Assembly (NCBI GenBank): GCA_964394145.1
Contig: CAYMVL010000025.1
Location: forward strand, 96,493 to 160,492
Length of the DNA: 64,000 nt
Reading direction: 5' to 3'
DNA from: an uncultured Dehalococcoidales bacterium
Lineage (GTDB): Bacteria > Chloroflexota > Dehalococcoidia > GIF9 > AB-539-J10
Part shown: in pieces, positions 25,069-38,991 of the stretch
Position numbering within the stretch: position 1 is the first letter of the stretch
Layout: each line of letters opens with the position of its first letter
Position numbers and translations under genes: made by a program
The notes under the pieces: model-generated
What the model was told of the DNA's origin: nothing
What the model saw: the letters and a program-made list of their open reading frames with translations, nothing else
Database searches by the model: none

Positions 25069-25135
25069 AACTGTACCCTCCTAGAAATCAAAATTTAAAC
25101 GCTAAAATTCAAAAAGACAATGCGAAATTTAAAAG

Positions 25136-25507
25136 TCATCTCTTGCCTCTTAGCGTCAAAATGCTCGCAGCGATGACACTGGCAATCTCCGTCAACTCTT
25201 CTAGAAGCTTCTGACTTAGCTCCTTTTCAGATTTGCCAGAGTCTTGTAACAGCCCCAGCCAGAATTTTGTCTCATTGGCTGATTTTAAGGCGTGGGCAAA
25301 GAAATTAGTGTAGTCCTTATTCGAAACAGCACCTTGAGCCTCAGCCATATTTGCCCCGATGCTGGTAGCACTCCGTAGTAACTGGTCACCAATAATCCTT
25401 GATGTCTGGTCCTTCGGCAGTTGTTCGATAAACCGGATAACATCCAGAGCAAATTGATATACCCGCTGCCTAAACTCGTCTTTAAACTTCAATCTCGCAT
25501 TTTGCAT
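25136..25507 (-). CDS. four-helix-bundle protein (23S rRNA intervening-sequence protein / Avd-like family)
   Basis: QFALDVIRFIEQLPKDQTSRIIGDQLLRSATSIGANMAEAQGA...FAHALKSANETKFWL matches the TIGR02436/PF05635 family pattern. Flanked on both sides by AT-rich low-complexity sequence. Confidence 0.8.
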   Translation of the reverse strand: MQNARLKFKDEFRQRVYQFALDVIRFIEQLPKDQTSRIIGDQLLRSATSIGANMAEAQGAVSNKDYTNFFAHALKSANETKFWLGLLQDSGKSEKELSQKLLEELTEIASVIAASILTLRGKR

Positions 25508-25533
25508 TTTTGTTTTTAATTTTTGGATTTTGT

Positions 25534-27679: not shown

Positions 27680-27926
27680 AGGCTGCCCAAGCTGGGCCTA
27701 AGCAATCCCGGGGCAGCCATGAGATTGCCGCGCTTCGCTCGCAATGACATGCCATTTTGTCGTTGCGAGGCTGGCCAGACCAGCCGAAGCAATCTGAGGG
27801 GCCAGCGATGGGATTGCCGCGCTTCGCTCGCAATGACATCCCGCTTTGTCGTTGCGAGGCAGGCAAAGCCAGCCGAAGCAATCCCGGGCCAGTGATGAGA
27901 TTGCCACGCTTCGCTCGCAATGACAT
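27680..27926. repeat. tandem array (~2.8 copies) of an 87-89 bp unit, each containing a 12-bp hairpin
   Basis: Units at 27719-27807, 27808-27894 and 27895-~27926 (truncated), plus a partial unit at 27680-27718. The unit begins atgRgattgccgcgcttcgctcgcaatgacat. The inverted repeat ctcgcaatgaca / tgtcgttgcgag allows one G-U pair. It lies between the rfbD stop and the RHH gene start. Confidence 0.8.
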
Positions 27927-28833: not shown

Positions 28834-29834
28834 CTTTTGAGGTACATTTCCTCGTAGTATCTTGAGTATTCGCCGCTCTTGATTGACTGCCACCAGGACC
28901 GGTTGTTCAGATACCAGTCAACAGTAGCACCCAGGGCTCCTTCAAAGGTGTAAGCCGGCTTCCAGCCCAGCTCCGCAGTTATCTTGGTGCAATCGAGGGC
29001 GTAGCGGCGGTCGTGGGCGGGACGGTCGGAGACGAATTGTATCAGGCTCTGCGGTTTTCCCAGTAACTCCAGCAACCTGTGGATAAGCTCCAGGTTGCTC
29101 TTCTCATTGCCGCCGCCGATATTGTATATCTCTCCCGGCCGGCCTTTCTGAAGCACGGCATTGAGAGCCCGGCAGTGGTCGTTTACAAAGATCCAGTCCC
29201 TGACATTGAGGCCATCGCCGTACACGGGGACCGGCTTATCCTCCAGAGCGTTGGTGATAGCCAGCGGGATTAGCTTCTCGGGAAACTGGTATGGTCCTAA
29301 GTTGTTAGTACAGCGGGTGATGATTACCGGGACATGGTGGGTCCTGAAGTAGGCAAGAGATAAGAGGTCGGCAGCAGCCTTGCTGGCTGAATACGGGCTG
29401 CTGGGTGACAGAAGCGATTGCTCATCGAAGCGGCCAATATCAACAGAGCCGTAGACTTCATCAGTGGAGACCTGGACAAATCTCCCGATCCCGTGCTTTT
29501 TTGCCCCTTCAAGGAGCACCTGAGTCCCCTTAACATTGGTCTCAATGAATGGAGAGGCGTCCATGATGCTGCGGTCAACGTGGCTCTCGGCGGCACAATT
29601 CACAACGAAATCAAAGCCCTCACCGAGCAACCTATCTACCAGCTTCCTGTCAGCTATATCACCTTTGATGAAACGGTAGCCGGGCCGGCCTTCCATATCC
29701 TTTAAGTTCTCCATGTTGCCGGCATAGGTGAGCTTGTCCAGATTGCTTATCTCCCAGTCGGCATGTTCTTGCCGGATATGGCGAATGAAATTAGAGCCGA
29801 TGAAGCCGGCGCCCCCGGTGACCAGTAGCTTCAT
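28830..29834 (-). CDS. rfbB: dTDP-glucose 4,6-dehydratase
   Basis: MKLLVTGGAGFIGSNF... and a YSASKAA catalytic motif. The ATG at 29834 is preceded by GGAGGAGG and overlaps the rfbC stop as ATGA. Confidence 0.9.
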   Translation of the reverse strand: MKLLVTGGAGFIGSNFIRHIRQEHADWEISNLDKLTYAGNMENLKDMEGRPGYRFIKGDIADRKLVDRLLGEGFDFVVNCAAESHVDRSIMDASPFIETNVKGTQVLLEGAKKHGIGRFVQVSTDEVYGSVDIGRFDEQSLLSPSSPYSASKAAADLLSLAYFRTHHVPVIITRCTNNLGPYQFPEKLIPLAITNALEDKPVPVYGDGLNVRDWIFVNDHCRALNAVLQKGRPGEIYNIGGGNEKSNLELIHRLLELLGKPQSLIQFVSDRPAHDRRYALDCTKITAELGWKPAYTFEGALGATVDWYLNNRSWWQSIKSGEYSRYYEEMYLKR

Positions 29835-30400
29835 TTCGCCTCCTCCATGTAGTGAAACCGGATATCGGCATCCCTCAGAGCGGGCCATTTTTCATCTTTT
29901 GCGGATAAAATAGGGTCTTTAACAGGCCACTCGATATTCAGCTCTGCATCATTCCAGATAATACCGGCTTCAGATTTGAGTGAGTAAACATCGGTGGTCT
30001 TATATATCACTTCGGCAATGTCCGAAAGAACACAGAAACCATGGGCCAGTCCTGCCGGGATATAGAGCATATTCCTGTTTTCCTCCGACAGGACTACACC
30101 CACCCATTTGCCCCGCGCAGGCGAGCCCTCTCTTATGTCAACGGCGACATCAAATATCTCGCCCCTTACCACCCTGACCAGCTTCCCCTGCGCGAAAGGC
30201 GGCTTCTGATAATGCAGCCCCCTGAGAACGCCTTTGCTGGAACGGGAGTGGTTCTCCTGGACAAAAGCCGCCTTTATGCCACCAGCAACGAAGTCCGGCA
30301 TCTTGTATGTTTCCATAAAGAAACCCCTGCCGTCTTCAAATACCTCTGGCTCTATCAGGACCAGTCCTGGAATATCTAGCGTCTTGAAAGCGAATGGCAC
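29831..30400 (-). CDS. rfbC: dTDP-4-dehydrorhamnose 3,5-epimerase
   Basis: RmlC cupin (GLVLIEPEVFEDGRGFF, RGLHYQ). GTG start at 30400 with an AAGGGAGAGG SD. Confidence 0.9.
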   Translation of the reverse strand: MPFAFKTLDIPGLVLIEPEVFEDGRGFFMETYKMPDFVAGGIKAAFVQENHSRSSKGVLRGLHYQKPPFAQGKLVRVVRGEIFDVAVDIREGSPARGKWVGVVLSEENRNMLYIPAGLAHGFCVLSDIAEVIYKTTDVYSLKSEAGIIWNDAELNIEWPVKDPILSAKDEKWPALRDADIRFHYMEEAK

Positions 30401-30420
30401 GTAAAACCTCTCCCTTGCTG

Positions 30421-30530
30421 GTTCAATAGTTCAATGGTTTCATGGTTCAATAGTTCAATAGTTCAATGGTTCAATGGTTTCATGGTTCAATCGTTGTTGG
30501 TTTTTTGGTTGCTGGTTTGCTGGTTCTTAA
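30421..30530. repeat. 8-nt periodic simple repeat (GTTCAATR) x9, decaying into GTTGYTG-like units
   Basis: gttcaatagttcaatggtttcatggttcaatagttcaatagttcaatggttcaatggtttcatggttcaatcgttgttgg... fills the rfbC to four-helix-bundle-gene spacer. The degenerate part encodes the C-terminal KPATKKPTTIEP tail of the four-helix-bundle protein. Confidence 0.8.
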
Positions 30531-30878
30531 GTAGCGAATGAAACCCTGTAACATCCTGGCAACTTTGCTGCATTGCTCCGTTAATGAGTCGAATTGATTA
30601 CCACTAATGTAATGCAAATCCAAAGCGGCGTAAAGTTGGGATTGAGCCTCTGCTGTAGAACGTAGAGAATAGCCCAGGAAAGTTGTAAATTCTCTGTTCG
30701 ATTGACACATAAAACCTTCGGCAATATTGGACATAACAGATATAACAGCCCGCTGAATTTGATCTCTCAACTCTCGGTCATTTTTGAATGGTGCTTTATT
30801 AGTGGCTTCATAAACCATCTTAACCAGTAACCTTGCCTCTCTCCATGCCTCTATATCCTCAAATCGCTCAATCTTCAT
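30480..30878 (-). CDS. four-helix-bundle protein (23S rRNA IVS protein / Avd-like family), second copy
   Basis: MKIERFEDIEAWREARLLVKMVYEATNKAPFKNDRELRDQIQRAVISVMSNIAEGF...STAEAQSQLYAALDLHYI, the canonical TIGR02436 pattern. Inserted between rfbA and rfbC. Confidence 0.8.
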   Translation of the reverse strand: MKIERFEDIEAWREARLLVKMVYEATNKAPFKNDRELRDQIQRAVISVMSNIAEGFMCQSNREFTTFLGYSLRSTAEAQSQLYAALDLHYISGNQFDSLTEQCSKVARMLQGFIRYLRTSKPATKKPTTIEP

Positions 30879-30887
30879 TAACTCTCA

Positions 30888-30935
30888 AACTATCTAACCA
30901 TCAACTATCTAACCATGTAACTATCTAACCACCCA
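30888..30935. repeat. about 3 tandem copies of a 15-16 nt unit ACTATCTAACCAYSW
   Basis: aactatctaaccatca / actatctaaccatgta / actatctaaccaccca fills the entire rfbA-stop to four-helix-bundle-start spacer. Confidence 0.7.
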
Positions 30936-30943
30936 ACCATCCC

Positions 30944-32035
30944 CTACAGCTCCACTCTGGCATCGTCGCCGACGAAAAGCCTCAGCGCCTTCAATGTCTG
31001 CCTGCCTTGTGTTACCTCGGTGCCCCGGCCTATAACGCTATCAGCCAGGCGCTCGATTCCAGAGATACGGCATCTCTCCAGTATCACCGAGTGCCCGATG
31101 GACGACCCCTCTATCACAGTACCCGCTCCAACGCTCGTGAAAGGGCCGATGAATGAATTCTTAACCTTACAGTCCTGATCTATGGAGACCGGCCCCCTGA
31201 TGGTGCTGTTTTCTATGCTTGTCCCTTCTCTGATTTCGACTCTGCCGGCCACCTGGCTGCCGGCATCAACCTCACCCCTCAAGTCGCGCTTTACAAATTC
31301 ATCAAGTACAACGCGGTTAGCTTCCAGCAGGTCGTCTTTCTTGCCCGTATCCAGCCACCAGCCTGTGAGGATATGGCTTCGGACCTTCTTGCCGGAATCA
31401 ATGAGCTGCTGGATGGTATCGGTTATTTCAAGTTCTCCCCGCCAGGAGGGTTCTATCCTCTCTATTGCACGGTGCACTTCTCCTGTGAAAAGATAAACGC
31501 CGGGCACTGCCAGATTTGTCTTCGGCTCGCGTGGTTTTTCCACAATGCTGGTTATCTCGCCTCTCTCGTTTAGTTCGGCAACGCCGAACAGACGCGGGTC
31601 TGGGACCTCTTTAAGCAGGACAAGCGCATCAGCCCTGTTTGTCGTAAACTCCTGAACAAAACTCCTGACGCCGCCCTGAATAAGATTGTCGCCAAGAAAC
31701 ATCAAGAAGGCAGAATCGCCCAGGAAGTCCCGGGCTGTCTTCACAGCATGGGCAAGCCCCAGAGGTTCGGATTGTAAAATGTAAGTAATTTGGGCATTCC
31801 ACCTTGAACCATCGCCCACAGCTTCCTTTATCCCCTGCCCCGTTTCCGGTGAAATAATAATTCCGATATCGTCTATCCCGGCTTCAGCGACCTGCTCCAA
31901 AACATAATACAGTATGGGCTTATTAGCCACCGCAATAAGCTGTTTCGCCAGAGTGTTGGTTAGGGGCCTGAGCCTGGTGCCCTTGCCCCCGCAGAGGATA
32001 ATAGCTTTCATGCCGGACAGGCGCTGCTCGTTCAT
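30944..32035 (-). CDS. rfbA: glucose-1-phosphate thymidylyltransferase, long form with C-terminal left-handed beta-helix domain
   Basis: N-terminal [11 protein letters not shown] nucleotidyltransferase motif. It is 363 aa with a C-terminal hexapeptide-repeat region ([20 protein letters not shown]...). An alternative ATG at 32011 gives MKAIILCGG. Confidence 0.85.
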
Positions 32036-32122: not shown

Positions 32123-34504
32123 TCACGACCCGGCTGGCCTGACATACTCAAAGATCTTTATCTGCGGTGAACTGTGACCTGCCAGCGTCGCCGTGGCAGG
32201 AGATTCATAGACTATCCTGTAGCTGTGCAACTCCTCCAGAGGCACAGCGCTGGCGAAGGGATCGGCGCTCACTATGCGCTGCTCTCCCGGCTCCTGGCTC
32301 GACATATACGCCTCTGCCTCGCCATAGCTGGAAAATGACTCTACCTTGGTGATTATCTTGTAGTCTGTCCCCTCCTGGCTGACCACCCGGTAAGAGATAA
32401 CAAGTATCTGCCCGGGCAGCTGAGCCTTAGCATCAAAGTTGTAAAGCCTGACCACCATAGAATTATAATAGGCAGGATAGAACAGGGTTATCTGCTCCAG
32501 TTTGCCGTCTCCGCTTTCCTGATAATAGGTGTCGTAGAACTCGTCCTGGCTCCCTCCCACCCACTGCGGCATGGCATAGAACTTGGAGCTGGCCATAGCA
32601 TGGTCAATTATTATGTATTTTGAGCCGACCTTGTCCATCATTTCCCCGGCTGAATCCTCGTCCTGAGCAAGGAAGAAGTGCGCCACATTCTGGACACCCT
32701 GCTGAAACGGGTTGGAAACGGGTATACGGTGGGCGATGCGGCTTATCCAGTGACCGTAGTCCCACCAGGAGAGTACGCTATAGGCGGTATCGGGGTACTG
32801 AAACGGTGTCTCATATAGCTGATAATAGGCATCAGGGTCGTCAAAGGGCTCAGGGCTATTAGACTTGAGCCACTCAAGCGAGCTATGCCACGCCTCGGTG
32901 ATGAGAAGTGGATTCCGGGCAATTGCCTCAGCTTTGCTGAAATTGGGGAAGAAGATAAGAAAGAAAAGGGCTACACCGGTCAGGATTACCCTGACCCGAA
33001 GAATCTTGCGCTGCCGCAGCGCCCTCACGTCCACCCGCCCCTCAACTCTCCTTTTCTGCTTTGCCTTCCTTGTTTGTACGTAATCTTTGACCAGATCAAC
33101 AGGCTCAGCCAGTAACTGTTTCAGCCCGGCGAAATCCAGGACCCTCCAGGCGAAATATCCTGCCAGCAAAGCCGCATTTACGGCGAAATAATAGCTGAAG
33201 CGGCGCTGCCCCAGAACGGCTACCAGCATTATCAGGCTCCATACCAGGAACAGCGTTTTATCTGGGCTCTCTTCCTTGATGCTGCGGTAAATCAGCCAGC
33301 CAAACGATATGAAGCAGATAAAGAAAGAGGTGGTGAAGTTGACCCAGGCTATCCTGAGGGAGAATGTGCCGTACGGCAACAGTAAAGGCTGCATCTCCAG
33401 TATGGTCAGGGCAGCACCGGCAGGGCTGAAGATGCTAAATCTAGCGAGCATTGAGTGGAGCAAGGCTGGATTAGCGGCATGAAAGATAGCAAGACCGATG
33501 CCGGCAAGCGCGGCCAGCGCTACAGGATAGAAGAAAGGCCTGACGCCTTGCCGGGTCATCACTCTGGAAATGCCGCTCAAGGCTACGGGCGCCAGTATGG
33601 CAACCAGGAAGGAGGCGGTATAGATAGAACTGAGCTGGTGTGCGGATAGATAAGGGAGATTGATTATAAGGGAGACAAGGAAAACCAGCACTCCAATCAT
33701 ACACAGGTAATCGGTTGATTTACCCCGCACGTGGTCTATGATGAACTGAATTAGCAGCCAGGCAGATATGATGAAGATAAGCAGCAGACCACCCACCCAG
33801 GTGAGAAGATAGATGCCCAGGAAGATGCCGGCAACTAAGGCATAAATGAGGGGCTTGATTACTTTGTTGCGCTCCCCTGTCCTCCCCCCTGAATGCAGAG
33901 GAAAAAGATGGTTGAAGGATATCTCTCTTTCTTTGAATTTCTTTACCGCCAGTATCAGGAATAGTATAGTCACAGCAGAGAATAAGCTCTCGGCCACATG
34001 GTGGTCCGCAAAGCCAAGCAGCGAGCGATTCAGAAATTCACCCGGCAGTACGGCCACCAGGCCCGCAGCGACTACACCCACCCAGCGATTGAATAGCTGC
34101 CTGCCTATGAAATAGACCGGAACAATCGTTACGGCAGCGAGAATGGGTGGAAGATAAGCTCCCGCTAAATCTATGCTGTGCTGCGACGGCGAACCCAGGT
34201 CAAGCAGCCAGGCGAAGCCGCCTACAAGCCAGTCAAAGAAGGGGGGCCAGGGCACCATGGTGCCACTGGGATAGTAGGTATAGGGGTCAAAAGCGATGCG
34301 GTGGGGAAAGTGCTGCAACAGGTTATCCACCAGCCTCATGTGGTACCAGGCATCGGTGCCTTGAAACCACACCGAGCCATGGCCAAAAACGTTGTCATAG
34401 GGCAGGGCTATACGAATATATAGAGAAATCCCGGCTATGATGAGCAGGGCTATGGTAACGATAAGGGATGGCCGGAGGCGACTTCTATTCACCTGAGTCG
34501 ACAT
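32123..34504 (-). CDS. aglB: oligosaccharyltransferase, STT3/AglB/PglB family (GT-C fold)
   Basis: 793 aa with about 13 N-terminal TM helices and a C-terminal periplasmic domain carrying the diagnostic WWDYGHWI motif. A downstream MMDKVGSKYIIID segment resembles the DK/MI motif. First gene of the 13-kb minus-strand cluster. Confidence 0.85.
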   Translation of the reverse strand: MSTQVNRSRLRPSLIVTIALLIIAGISLYIRIALPYDNVFGHGSVWFQGTDAWYHMRLVDNLLQHFPHRIAFDPYTYYPSGTMVPWPPFFDWLVGGFAWLLDLGSPSQHSIDLAGAYLPPILAAVTIVPVYFIGRQLFNRWVGVVAAGLVAVLPGEFLNRSLLGFADHHVAESLFSAVTILFLILAVKKFKEREISFNHLFPLHSGGRTGERNKVIKPLIYALVAGIFLGIYLLTWVGGLLLIFIISAWLLIQFIIDHVRGKSTDYLCMIGVLVFLVSLIINLPYLSAHQLSSIYTASFLVAILAPVALSGISRVMTRQGVRPFFYPVALAALAGIGLAIFHAANPALLHSMLARFSIFSPAGAALTILEMQPLLLPYGTFSLRIAWVNFTTSFFICFISFGWLIYRSIKEESPDKTLFLVWSLIMLVAVLGQRRFSYYFAVNAALLAGYFAWRVLDFAGLKQLLAEPVDLVKDYVQTRKAKQKRRVEGRVDVRALRQRKILRVRVILTGVALFFLIFFPNFSKAEAIARNPLLITEAWHSSLEWLKSNSPEPFDDPDAYYQLYETPFQYPDTAYSVLSWWDYGHWISRIAHRIPVSNPFQQGVQNVAHFFLAQDEDSAGEMMDKVGSKYIIIDHAMASSKFYAMPQWVGGSQDEFYDTYYQESGDGKLEQITLFYPAYYNSMVVRLYNFDAKAQLPGQILVISYRVVSQEGTDYKIITKVESFSSYGEAEAYMSSQEPGEQRIVSADPFASAVPLEELHSYRIVYESPATATLAGHSSPQIKIFEYVRPAGS

Positions 34505-36666: not shown

Positions 36667-37683
36667 ATGAGTTCTCCGACCCGGAAAACGCCGAGAATTG
36701 GTTTGGCCTTAGGTGGCGGTGGCGCCCGGGGCCTAGCCCATATCGGGGTACTGAAGGCTATGGAGCAGGAATCTATTCCTATTGACGTGATATCCGGCAC
36801 GAGCGCGGGTGCAATTGTAGGAGCTTTCTATGCTAAAGAAAGAAATGCGGCTATCCTGGAGGAGATAGCATTAGGGATAGATTGGAGGAAGATGGCTCGC
36901 CTGCTTGACCCCAACTTATTGTTGCTGGACAAGGGCTTGGTTCATGGCGCGAAAGTGAAGGAATTCATTAAATCCATCATCGGGGATGTTAAGTTCGAGG
37001 ACTTAGAAATACCGCTGGCGATTGTAGCTGCTGATGCAGAGACTATGGAGGAAGTTGTCATCGACGAAGGCTCGGTGCTAGAAGCGGTTAGAGCAAGCAT
37101 ATCGCTGCCGGTCATATTGACTCCGGTAAAGCGGGATAACAGGTTCTTAATTGATGGTGGCATAGTCAACCCCGTACCTGCGGACGTAGTACGCAGTATG
37201 GGAGCTGAAATAGTCATTGCGGTGAATGTAGTCCCCCCTCCACCACATAAAAGGCAGGCCAGGCGAGCCCCTAAAAAACAGATGCCTGAGAAAACACAGG
37301 CTTCGCGCCCTCAGAGTGTTCGTTTACTTACTGTGAGGAGGAAATTCGACAGCTTGCTACAAGAGTACAGGGAGAGAATTGAAGTATTTGACAGGCTCTC
37401 ACAGCTGGCCAAGAGCACAATCCATGAACGCAGAAGCAGGATAGCCCCCGGCACTCCCACCATCGTAGATGTACTGATACACTCGCTGGAGGCTATGCAA
37501 TATGAACGCATCAGGTTAAGGACAATAACTGCCGATATAACTATAAGCCCCGACGTGGGGGATATTGGAATGTTTGGCTTCTATAAGGGGGAGGAGGCTA
37601 TAGCGCAAGGTTATAAAGCTGCAAAAGAAGCACTACCAAAGGTGAGAGAAAAGATCGATTCCCTAACATTTTTACCTTCGTAA
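36667..37683 (+). CDS. patatin-like phospholipase
   Basis: GLALGGGGARGLAHIGVL oxyanion motif, GTSAG nucleophile elbow, and DGG catalytic Asp. Confidence 0.85.
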   Translation: MSSPTRKTPRIGLALGGGGARGLAHIGVLKAMEQESIPIDVISGTSAGAIVGAFYAKERNAAILEEIALGIDWRKMARLLDPNLLLLDKGLVHGAKVKEFIKSIIGDVKFEDLEIPLAIVAADAETMEEVVIDEGSVLEAVRASISLPVILTPVKRDNRFLIDGGIVNPVPADVVRSMGAEIVIAVNVVPPPPHKRQARRAPKKQMPEKTQASRPQSVRLLTVRRKFDSLLQEYRERIEVFDRLSQLAKSTIHERRSRIAPGTPTIVDVLIHSLEAMQYERIRLRTITADITISPDVGDIGMFGFYKGEEAIAQGYKAAKEALPKVREKIDSLTFLPS

Positions 37684-37779
37684 TGCATAATAGCCCTCTC
37701 TTGAGCATAGTCCATTGCCACGCTTAAGCCTGTTATATATAATGTTAGCTGAGACATTTCGGGTAAGGAGGTAGAGAAG

Positions 37780-38991
37780 ATGGGGATACACAGAGCAAGA
37801 AAATTTCTTGTGATTTTCACTGTACTGGCTATGGCAATCATGCTAATTGGTGCCTGTAGCCCGCCAGCACCCTCACCGACAGAACCGGTACCAGCACCAG
37901 AACCAGTACCGGTACCGCTACCAGAACCGGAACCTGCAGAGCCTGGGGCCAACCGACCACCAGAAGTCTCAAGGCTAGTTGCTGCACAGACGAATGTCCT
38001 GCCTCTGGCTATCATCGAGATTCGGTGCCTTGCGTCAGACCCGGACGGCGACCCTATCACTTATGCGTGGACAACCACCGGTGGAAGTTTCAGCGGCACC
38101 GGAGCTACAGTCTCCTGGGTGGCACCACAGCATTATGGAGCTTACGATGTAACAGTCACCGTAAGCGATGACAAGCATAGCATCACAAAAGCTACTATAA
38201 ATCTAACCGTCATATCCAACCAGAACCCGCAGATTCTGAGCCTGTCTGCTGAACCTGATACGGTCCTGCCCAATAAGAAATCAACGCTTAGATGCGTTGC
38301 TACGGACCCTGATGGGGATGTGCTGAGCTACAGCTGGAGCGCCGATTCTGGCAGCATCACCGGCGTGGGTGATACAGTCGTCTGGATAGCACCGGATAGA
38401 GAGGGAGAGTTCACCATTACAGCCACCGTCGATGATGGCGAAGGCGGACAGAATGCGGCAGATGTATCGGTGGCTGTCGTTCCAACCGAGCAGACAACAA
38501 CTTTCACCCCGGTGCCTGCGGAAACCGGCAAGGTATCGAGTGAGGGAGATAAGGATGTCTCAAGGATGATAGCAGGAGATGATGGCAATAATATTGCCTA
38601 TCATGCCTTCTGGAGCTTTGACCTCTATAGCTTGAGGGGCACCGACGTTAAAGATGCCAAGCTGACTCTTTCTACCAAGGAAGTAGTCGGCGAACCATTC
38701 CATAAGAATACAGGACTTAATGGCCTACGCATAGCAGCAGTCCGTTATGAAGAGGGACACTTGCCAATTTTTGCCCCGGAAATATACAGCGAGCTATCTC
38801 CAATTATGTGGGAAGCGCCTGCAAAAGATATAGATGTAACGAAATTGGTGAGGAGTATTGGGCTGCGTCTTAGTGCCAGTGATCGTTTGCAGGTAGAAGC
38901 CCTGTTTATACACGAAACCAATGCCAACTATGTCGCTGACCACGTTGAATGGCTATCGGCTACACTTACTGTCACCTATACAAGGGAATGA
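37780..38991 (+). CDS. secreted lipoprotein with Pro-rich linker and tandem Ig-like (PKD-like) domains
   Basis: Signal peptide plus lipobox LIGAC, a (PEPV)-rich linker, and two DPDGDxxxYxW...WxAP...G.Y...V.V.D repeats. AAGGAGGT SD. Confidence 0.6.
   Translation: MGIHRARKFLVIFTVLAMAIMLIGACSPPAPSPTEPVPAPEPVPVPLPEPEPAEPGANRPPEVSRLVAAQTNVLPLAIIEIRCLASDPDGDPITYAWTTTGGSFSGTGATVSWVAPQHYGAYDVTVTVSDDKHSITKATINLTVISNQNPQILSLSAEPDTVLPNKKSTLRCVATDPDGDVLSYSWSADSGSITGVGDTVVWIAPDREGEFTITATVDDGEGGQNAADVSVAVVPTEQTTTFTPVPAETGKVSSEGDKDVSRMIAGDDGNNIAYHAFWSFDLYSLRGTDVKDAKLTLSTKEVVGEPFHKNTGLNGLRIAAVRYEEGHLPIFAPEIYSELSPIMWEAPAKDIDVTKLVRSIGLRLSASDRLQVEALFIHETNANYVADHVEWLSATLTVTYTRE

Follow-up and report, generated by a model that had tools for sequence, protein, structure and literature searches.

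Between rmlA and rmlC of an uncultured Dehalococcoidales bacterium (contig CAYMVL010000025.1, positions 96,493 to 160,492; this 64-kb stretch is called the window in the following) we found a small genetic element composed of three parts: a 5' array of 8-nt units, an open reading frame (ORF) for a four-helix-bundle (4HB) protein of the PF05635 family, and a 3' array that is reverse-complementary to the first one and supplies the disordered tail and the stop codon of the protein. It is probably a gene cassette of the intervening-sequence (IVS) type, inserted precisely after the rmlA stop codon and before the rmlC ribosome-binding site.

The cassette at the rmlA–rmlC junction

With the window as reference, all genes of the filled site are located on the minus strand. 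The cassette covers about 523 nt (30421–30943), from the base following the rmlA stop codon to the final 8-nt unit ahead of the rmlC ribosome-binding site. These limits are based on a comparison of filled and empty junctions, namely the empty junction of locus L089, the junctions of L087, L088 and L008 and the gene order in 80 rmlA loci (L numbers denote the loci and contigs used for comparison). Upstream lies the long form of rmlA, encoding a glucose-1-phosphate thymidylyltransferase (30944–32035; TIGR01208 with E 1.7e-143, and PF00483), whose TAG stop codon (30944–30946) directly abuts the cassette. Downstream follow rmlC, encoding the dTDP-4-dehydrorhamnose 3,5-epimerase (29831–30400, GTG start; TIGR01221 with E 3.2e-76), and then rmlB and rmlD. 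The 5' arm (30879–30943) is an array of GGTTAGAT/AGTTACAT-type 8-nt units, identified with Tandem Repeats Finder (TRF) and by pattern search, which can also be read as three units of 15–16 nt and extends to the ATG of the 4HB gene, so that the weak Shine-Dalgarno (SD) sequence of this gene (GAGAG) sits within it. For positions 30888–30931 TRF reports a period of 15 (2.8 copies, 93% matches) and, equally good, a period of 8 (6.5 copies), and ACTATCTAACCA occurs three times in the 64 kb, always in this spacer, with 0.28 occurrences expected.

The 4HB gene itself (30480–30878) encodes a 132-aa protein of the 23S rRNA-IVS protein or S23p family. Its last part (30483–30530) consists of decayed 7–8-nt units (AACCAGC/AAACCAGC/AACCAAA and further ones, seen with TRF and by direct reading) which, on the minus strand, code for the C-terminal tail SKPATKKPTTIEP (ending in ...TSKPATKKPTTIEP). 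The TGA stop codon (30480–30482) is part of the first repeat unit of the 3' arm (30421–30482), an array of CCATTGAA/CTATTGAA/CCATGAAA 8-nt units that was found by TRF, by pattern search and in the duplex prediction. On this side TRF reports two stretches of period 8, one at 30419–30495 (9.6 copies, score 98) and one at 30494–30525 (4.1 copies), and all seven matches to GTTCAATRGTTCAATR with up to two mismatches in the 64 kb fall into the 3' array, the expectation being 0.12. The SD sequence of rmlC, GGGAGAGG, can be read directly just beyond the cassette (30408–30415). A scan of 30400–30950 for promoters and terminators revealed no promoter-like or terminator-like site, with counts matching those of shuffled sequences, and the cassette is thus an element without such internal sites that lies co-directional between closely spaced host genes. 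An initial annotation of the window had described a 4HB gene wedged between rfbA (rmlA) and rfbC (rmlC), with both spacers made of short tandem repeats and with repeat units encoding the tail and the stop codon of the protein, and this description is borne out by the TIGR01208 and TIGR01221 neighbours, by TRF and the pattern search and by the direct reading of the minus strand.

The protein matches PF05635 (23S_rRNA_IVP) over the complete profile (positions 1–106 of 106) with E 8.2e-32 and 110 bits (cut-off 33.8) as well as TIGR02436 ("four helix bundle protein") with E 2e-30 and 105 bits (cut-off 24). In the PDB its sequence matches 2GSC (E 5.7e-12), and the family is large, as this query alone yields 2,197 matches at E ≤ 1e-3. 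An AlphaFold2 monomer model with a predicted local distance difference test (pLDDT) score of 90.5 shows helices at residues 10–26, 35–56, 61–87 and 93–119, beyond which the array-encoded tail (residues 120–132) is modelled as disordered, with pLDDT below 50 at residues 124–131. Using Foldseek the model was found to resemble XCC0516 (2GSC; template modelling (TM) scores 0.81/0.91, root-mean-square deviation 1.5), BT_0352 (2RLD; TM 0.73/0.88) and, more distantly, Avd of the diversity-generating retroelements (DGRs; 4DWL, TM 0.70/0.85), and the DGR ribonucleoprotein 8UB7 was matched too. The assignment to the family of IVS proteins and Avd-like four-helix bundles, which had been made from the sequence alone, can therefore be retained. 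The dN/dS ratios of the window ORF against its relatives in L007–L010 amount to 0.06–0.19 (0.03–0.19 for all computable pairs) and indicate that the core of the ORF is under purifying selection, from which it follows that the 4HB protein should matter, at least for the cassette.

Apart from some mismatches, the 3' array (ATTGAACY)n is the reverse complement of the 5' array (RGTTASAT)n. This had been overlooked in the initial annotation, and the arrays are not to be seen as two independent repeats. With RNAduplex the full-length 65-nt 5' spacer and 79-nt 3' spacer are predicted to form a duplex with about 60 nt pairing and −46.5 kcal/mol, an energy reached by none of 500 dinucleotide shuffles of the arms (−24.7 ± 3.8 kcal/mol; z −5.8). 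Because raw duplex energies are confounded by GC content, they were dropped as a statistic and replaced by z values against shuffles and by a test of cognate against non-cognate flanks. The dinucleotide shuffles are conservative for G-rich/C-rich arms, as can be seen for L087 and L088 with z values around 0 despite obviously complementary heptamers. The same long-range arm helix is found in the minimum free energy (MFE) fold of the full-length region, where it encloses the ORF, covers its weak SD and AUG and has at its base the rmlA stop codon on one side and the position just 5' of the rmlC SD on the other. The element thus has what is expected of an IVS, complementary borders predicted to form a stable stem around it.

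The identical protein is encoded on nine contigs from several samples, and a comparison of these contigs points to a high variability of the arrays. Contigs with an identical coding sequence have a 5' spacer of 58, 65 or 66 nt and a 3' spacer of 79 or 103 nt, as given by assemblies and not by reads, and the 3' arm of the window is 24 nt (three units) shorter than that of L001, L002, L003 and L005. The 2.9-kb contig L005 differs from the window by two array indels only, with one additional nt in the 5' arm. Out of five differences between the window and L002 (6.7 kb) four are located in the arrays (in the 5' array a 7-nt indel together with two single-nucleotide polymorphisms (SNPs), in the 3' array a 24-nt indel) and the fifth is one SNP elsewhere. 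The differences to L001 (about 12 kb) are the 24-nt (three-unit) indel of the 3' array, a gap of Ns in the scaffold and the region of an 89-nt repeat downstream of rmlD. As judged from these assemblies, the arrays are shown to change their length far faster than the surrounding DNA, in line with the repeat length polymorphism that had been anticipated in the initial annotation. Two independent Logan assemblies (L004 and L006) stop at the same base inside the 3' array (window position 30430). As contigs break in the arrays, array lengths derived from contigs need confirmation from reads. An apparent frameshift of aglB in L001 (618 + 187 aa) was rejected as a polymorphism since it results from the scaffold gap of Ns.

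Empty sites and related cassettes

When one genome per species was scanned with RmlA, the window grouped with metagenome-assembled genomes (MAGs) of Dehalococcoidales/Dehalococcoidia. The Dehalococcoidales locus L089 (RmlA 79% identical) has the operon aglB-rmlA-rmlC-rmlB-rmlD with an empty junction, TAG-CAGCCAAGGAACGAC-ATG with 15 nt between the two codons, whose AAGGAA aligns with the rmlC SD GGGAGAGG of the window. In the alignment of filled and empty junction no target-site duplication is visible. Furthermore, rmlA directly adjoins rmlC in six more distant genomes (L103, L123, L125, L130, L156 and L158), and the two genes are directly adjacent in most other taxa sampled. In two sister genomes with RmlA 82–83% identical to that of the window, the rmlA–rmlC junction is occupied by another 4HB cassette that is not orthologous (31% identity; L087, 1712–2175; L088, 3569–4024), with GGGTCAGG/GATTAGGG arrays upstream and CTGGTCCC/CGATCCCC arrays downstream (GGGTCAG/CCCTGAC heptamers) that are complementary to each other and differ from those of the window. 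This suggests either a repeated insertion at one junction or the replacement of one cassette by another.

The metagenome contigs L007 (88% aa identity) and L008 (80%) have orthologous cassettes next to rmlC, and there the homologous 3' array (AACCATC/AACCAAY)n lies entirely inside the tail of the ORF and the ORF overlaps the start of rmlC. Cassettes with 71–76% aa identity were found in another operon upstream of mttB (L009, L010 and L014), with a gene for a corrinoid-binding protein or a hydantoinase on one side and for an MttB-family methyltransferase on the other. Their arrays are of the type GATGGTT/AACCATC, and one of these cassettes is a frameshifted pseudogene. The occurrence of related cassettes together with arrays in other operons and at other junctions indicates that the gene travels together with its arrays. 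The empty site that the initial annotation had proposed to look for in relatives is therefore found in L089, and its idea of an inserted mobile or selfish cassette gains support from this site, from the six genomes with adjacent rmlA and rmlC and from the cassettes of the mttB operon. In two further loci a 4HB gene with 7-nt flank arrays is located immediately upstream of rmlA and not downstream (L098, 2105–2495; L126, 2052–2415).

To see how common this architecture is, we compared the 4HB genes of 80 metagenome loci encoding relatives (45–88% identity) with 260 control genes, namely the remaining ORFs of 90 aa or more in the loci retrieved, counting as array any tandem array with a period of 6–9 and at least 2.5 copies. 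Flanks with a duplex z below −3 were found for 39.5% of 81 4HB genes and for 1.9% of the 260 controls (Fisher p 7e-18). At least one flank carries an array in 70 of 76 4HB genes (40 of 260 controls) and both flanks do so in 46 of 76 (7 of 260 controls), with period 7 being the commonest (71 of 116 arrays in 4HB flanks). The units vary across cassettes and are complementary within them, as in (GTTCAAG)n/(CTTGAAC)n, (GTCCAAA)n/(TTGGACA)n, (GAGTTAC)n/(TCATAAC)n or the 8-mers TGGTCGGG/GACCACCA. Of 47 non-redundant cassettes, 11 have a 5' flank that pairs best with its cognate 3' flank, with about one expected, and in 19 the cognate flank ranks among the top three, with about three expected. Neighbours at most 400 nt away on either side are present for 34 4HB genes, 31 of which run in the same direction as both neighbours, the median spacers being 57 and 42 nt. 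Such genes with arrays occur in contexts of sulfate activation (cysDN), methyltransferases (mttB), gas vesicles (gvp), CRISPR (cas/cas6) and nrd. Together these data indicate that the bracketing by inverted arrays is a family-wide design shared by most of the sampled members, a generality that the initial annotation had not noticed, just as it had missed a second 4HB gene in the window.

Rfam detected four tRNAs and nothing else in the window, and neither there nor in the 20 loci with the strongest stems an rRNA or a known RNA family was found at the cassettes. One relative was found on viral contigs, which is devoid of arrays, giving no sign of phages as usual carriers. Orphan arrays without an adjacent 4HB gene amount to 53.7 per 100 kb in 4HB-seeded loci and to 6.2 per 100 kb in rmlA-seeded loci without a 4HB gene, an enrichment of about 9-fold. 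In L086 (2000–3400) and L059 (80–620) host genes, encoding Cas6 and GvpK, respectively, are flanked by arrays of the unit type of the neighbouring 4HB cassette, so that several spacers of one operon carry arrays, some of them without an ORF.

The same design is seen in cyanobacteria, where inverted heptamer arrays enclose three of four plasmid-borne genes of Nostoc and Calothrix that are annotated as "four helix bundle / S23 ribosomal protein". The 4HB gene of the Nostoc edaphicum plasmid pNe_5 (L168, 259376–259744) lies antisense between the co-oriented genes for the beta and alpha subunits of ribonucleotide reductase and has the arm pair (AGTAGGG)n/(TCCCTAC)n with −96.8 kcal/mol. The one on a plasmid of Calothrix PCC 7716 (L169) lies antisense between co-oriented HlyD-like and ABC-transporter genes.

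Proposed function and alternative explanations

For the cassette of the window we propose a transcription by read-through within the rmlA-rmlCBD message. In this RNA the two arrays would pair into an imperfect stem of about 60 bp, which would loop out the ORF, cover its weak SD and AUG and juxtapose the rmlA stop codon and the rmlC SD, and which might in this way keep the translation of the cassette ORF low. Since 23S rRNA intervening sequences carrying the same gene family are cut by RNase III, the stem is likely to be a substrate of this enzyme as well. Folding or cutting would make the insertion tolerable to the host operon, with the message perhaps being split between rmlA and rmlC.

Several points weigh against this proposal. 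The element works like an IVS and is not one in the strict sense, as it is located outside rRNA, and both the pairing of the arms and the cleavage by RNase III are predictions. The MFE of the 556-nt transcript is not better than that of shuffles (z +0.40), the arm–arm interaction alone being significant. Among the mismatches of the arms G:U and A:C are about equally frequent on the sense strand (14 and 15, respectively), and without an excess of G:U an upkeep of the complementarity at the level of RNA rather than of DNA is left without support. For a second 4HB cassette in the window (25069–25533, see below) the complementarity of the arms is marginal with −23.3 kcal/mol, z −2.7 and 6 of 500 shuffles for tight flanks and a z of about 0 for wide flanks, and no stem is therefore claimed for it. 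Expression by read-through is not universal, as two of the four cassettes examined on cyanobacterial plasmids have an orientation opposite to that of the adjacent genes. Finally, the 24-nt difference between the 3' arrays equals a single higher-order unit of 24 nt and may stem from an assembly collapse; the changes in the 5' array differ from it in kind.

The lack of a G:U preference together with the antisense cassettes makes a role of the arrays at the DNA level a serious rival, even if we regard it as rather unlikely. The inverted arrays would then be the ends of a mobile element, serving as multi-copy binding sites or as hairpin sites in single-stranded DNA that are recognised either by the 4HB protein, as a pentamer that binds nucleic acids, or by an enzyme of the host or one acting in trans, and the RNA stem would be a by-product. 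Such a role would fit the geometry of inverted terminal repeats, the unit sequence that is particular to each cassette, the cyanobacterial plasmid cassettes in either orientation relative to host genes, the enrichment of orphan arrays near 4HB genes, which recalls the relation of repetitive extragenic palindromic (REP) sequences and REP-associated tyrosine transposases (RAYTs), and the fold similar to Avd, which in the DGR ribonucleoprotein 8UB7 is bound to both RNA and the reverse transcriptase. It is less easily reconciled with the absence of any recombinase, transposase or reverse transcriptase among the proteins scanned (21.4–36.6 kb), with the junction showing no target-site duplication and with a four-helix bundle that has no known catalytic motif, and the G:U test in its favour rests on a small count of 29 mismatches. 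The initial annotation had offered another explanation, in which slippage in the arrays alters the read-through or coupling from rmlA into rmlC, rmlB and rmlD and results in a phase-variable synthesis of a rhamnose glycan. The array lengths do vary among near-identical contigs and the locus adjoins a gene for an AglB-type oligosaccharyltransferase. A contingency locus would, however, have a tract of polymorphic length within an ORF or a promoter, and while the length is polymorphic here (in assemblies, not reads), it is only the cassette's own ORF whose tail overlaps an array. As the arrays are outside of both host ORFs, changes in unit number cannot shift the reading frames of the host genes; a stem built from repeats tolerates shifts in register; and no promoter-like or terminator-like site lies in the element. 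The same array design is moreover found beside 4HB genes in cysDN, mttB, gvp, cas and nrd contexts, so that the arrays belong to the cassette and not to the glycan genes. Phase variation is therefore not upheld and seems improbable to us.

Even less probable is a domesticated 4HB gene of the rhamnose/N-glycosylation operon whose repeats are ordinary stabilising hairpins between cistrons, comparable to REP or to the STRR (short tandemly repeated repetitive) sequences of cyanobacteria. The purifying selection on the ORF and the presence of a 4HB gene at the junction of several relatives (L007, L008, L087 and L088) would agree with it, and for the STRR hairpins between hupS and hupL a role in transcript stabilisation or translational coupling has been suggested (PMC2670836). 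It does not account for relatives having a non-orthologous 4HB gene (31%) at the junction while their RmlA is 82–83% identical, for empty junctions, for close homologues of the gene in unrelated operons or for the direct adjacency of rmlA and rmlC in most other taxa sampled. That the gene encodes the Avd accessory protein of a DGR can hardly be believed in spite of the similar fold (4DWL with TM 0.70/0.85, and 8UB7), and this reading was rejected. A scan of 16 proteins between 21.4 and 36.6 kb revealed no reverse-transcriptase domain, the neighbours being AglB, RmlA, RmlC, RmlB and RmlD with rmlA and rmlC as the genes directly on either side. No pair of template and variable repeats was seen, and Avd is only 12% identical and is missing from the hits of the PDB sequence search. 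An integron cassette was rejected as well, as there is no attC/intI pattern and a single ORF with repeats on both sides is located between housekeeping genes; no integrase was found among the neighbouring proteins scanned.

The IVS-type cassette preferred here can be compared to several known systems. With the ORF-bearing IVS of 23S rRNA (Leptospira; Coxiella burnetii, PMC4990558) it shares the protein family encoded in the loop, tandem repeats of 7–8 nt beside the ORF, whose copy number depends on the strain in the IVS and on the contig in the cassette, a weak SD of the ORF inside the stem and a sporadic, selfish-looking distribution. In the 23S IVS of Coxiella the S23p ORF is bordered by a 28-bp stem that is cut by RNase III, and two or three tandem GACAGAT heptamers, depending on the strain, are located upstream of the ORF (PMC4990558). 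The host RNA is different, being helix 45 of 23S rRNA for the IVS and the rmlA|rmlC spacer of a protein-coding operon for the cassette. Also the stem differs, as that of Coxiella is a near-perfect helix of 28 bp and that of the cassette would be about 60 nt long, imperfect and built wholly from tandem units. Cleavage by RNase III has been demonstrated for the Coxiella IVS and would be expected by analogy for the cassette, and the ORF, which is decaying in Coxiella, is under purifying selection in the cassette.

Cyanobacterial STRR sequences resemble the arrays in that they repeat a unit of about 7 nt in tandem, lie in spacers between the genes of operons and can form hairpins, and the arrays around three of the four 4HB genes on the Nostoc and Calothrix plasmids are of the STRR kind. 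An STRR sequence is reportedly also located within an RNase P RNA gene, going by the title of a 1997 article by Vioque that is cited in PMC7593598. STRR heptamers between hupS and hupL form hairpins between the two cistrons, and in the text consulted they are presented as repeats with no associated gene being mentioned (PMC2670836). In contrast, the cassette has two inverted arrays about 400 nt apart around a 4HB ORF and a unit of 8 nt, and its host is not a heterocyst-forming cyanobacterium but a bacterium of the Chloroflexota with MAGs of Dehalococcoidales/Dehalococcoidia as nearest genomes. Intercistronic hairpins processed by RNase III are known from polycistronic mRNAs such as those of the phage T7 early region and of rpsO-pnp. 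Like these, the cassette would place a long imperfect double-stranded RNA stem between the cistrons of one transcript; unlike it, they consist of short, local stem-loops that enclose no gene, and they are no mobile insertions. The combination of a gene flanked by inverted short repeats with gene-less copies of such repeats is reminiscent of REP sequences, their REPIN arrangements and RAYTs. RAYT transposases are HUH nucleases with a known mechanism, whereas the 4HB protein is without a catalytic motif and its repeats are tandem arrays of 7–9-nt units and not single palindromes. Avd (4DWL, 8UB7) has the same four-helix-bundle fold and is a distant homologue with 12% identity, and it differs in that no reverse transcriptase, template or variable repeat is present near the cassette.

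We tentatively suggest, as a possibility that goes beyond the single locus, that small mobile cassettes of a widespread and as yet unrecognised kind might carry PF05635 genes as cargo. These cassettes would be bounded by inverted arrays of 7–9-nt units and would insert precisely into transcribed spacers, both between the cistrons of operons and in rRNA helices. The Avd-related 4HB protein might bind the RNA or DNA of the arrays and promote the maintenance or the spread of the cassette. If this is true, 23S IVS ORFs and STRR hairpins would be two faces of one and the same element. To our knowledge, both the rRNA intervening sequences with 4HB ORFs and the STRR repeats of cyanobacteria have been without an explanation for decades, and we know of no function of the PF05635/S23p/Avd-like family outside of DGRs. 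The single locus described here is an ordinary member of its family, and the family-wide architecture linking IVS, STRR-like repeats and an Avd-like fold is apparently undescribed. The literature searched did not describe any 4HB gene outside rRNA that is bracketed by inverted tandem arrays, which is weak evidence as most subscription journals were not covered. The shared architecture, the clean empty sites and the hypervariable arrays offer concrete handles on the function of the family and on the IVS and STRR puzzles, since they provide a defined RNA stem, defined DNA and RNA ligands for the protein and filled as well as empty junctions for studying the insertion. The operons interrupted by these cassettes are concerned with glycans, sulfate activation, methyltransferases, gas vesicles and CRISPR. 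In practical terms, the arrays break short-read assemblies, and array-encoded C-terminal tails and variable stop codons should be expected during annotation.

Second cassette, further repeats and neighbouring genes of the window

A second, unrelated 4HB cassette is located at 25069–25533 on the minus strand (PF05635 with E 3.6e-23). Its ORF (25136–25507, minus strand) encodes 123 aa with 27% identity to the first protein, and its neighbours are a PAPS_reduct (cysD-like) and a GTP_EFTU (cysN-like) gene. Upstream of the ORF an A-rich array of heptamers (TRF 25500–25531) is present, and the flank downstream of it is T-rich.

Just downstream of rmlD (27696–27926) lies the tandem repeat with a unit of 89 nt mentioned above, present in 2.6 copies with 84% matches. 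It contains internal GTCATTGCGAG...CTCGCAACGAC palindromes and is crossed by spurious ORFs on both strands. L001 and L003 align in this region in split pieces only, which suggests that its copy number differs between the population contigs. The window's only other short-period array is found at 37880–37934, where the hexamer CAGAAC is repeated 9.2 times (or a 24-nt unit 2.3 times) inside the overlapping ORFs 37780–38991 (plus strand) and 37611–38060 (minus strand).

Directly upstream of the rml genes the window encodes an archaeal-type oligosaccharyltransferase of the AglB/STT3 type (32123–34504, minus strand), which matches the "archaeosortase A system-associated" family TIGR04154 with 705 bits. 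The gene order aglB-rmlACBD is kept in L087–L089, L101 and L103. The position of aglB next to the rml genes in a Dehalococcoidales-like bacterium hints at a protein N-glycosylation with a rhamnose-containing glycan.

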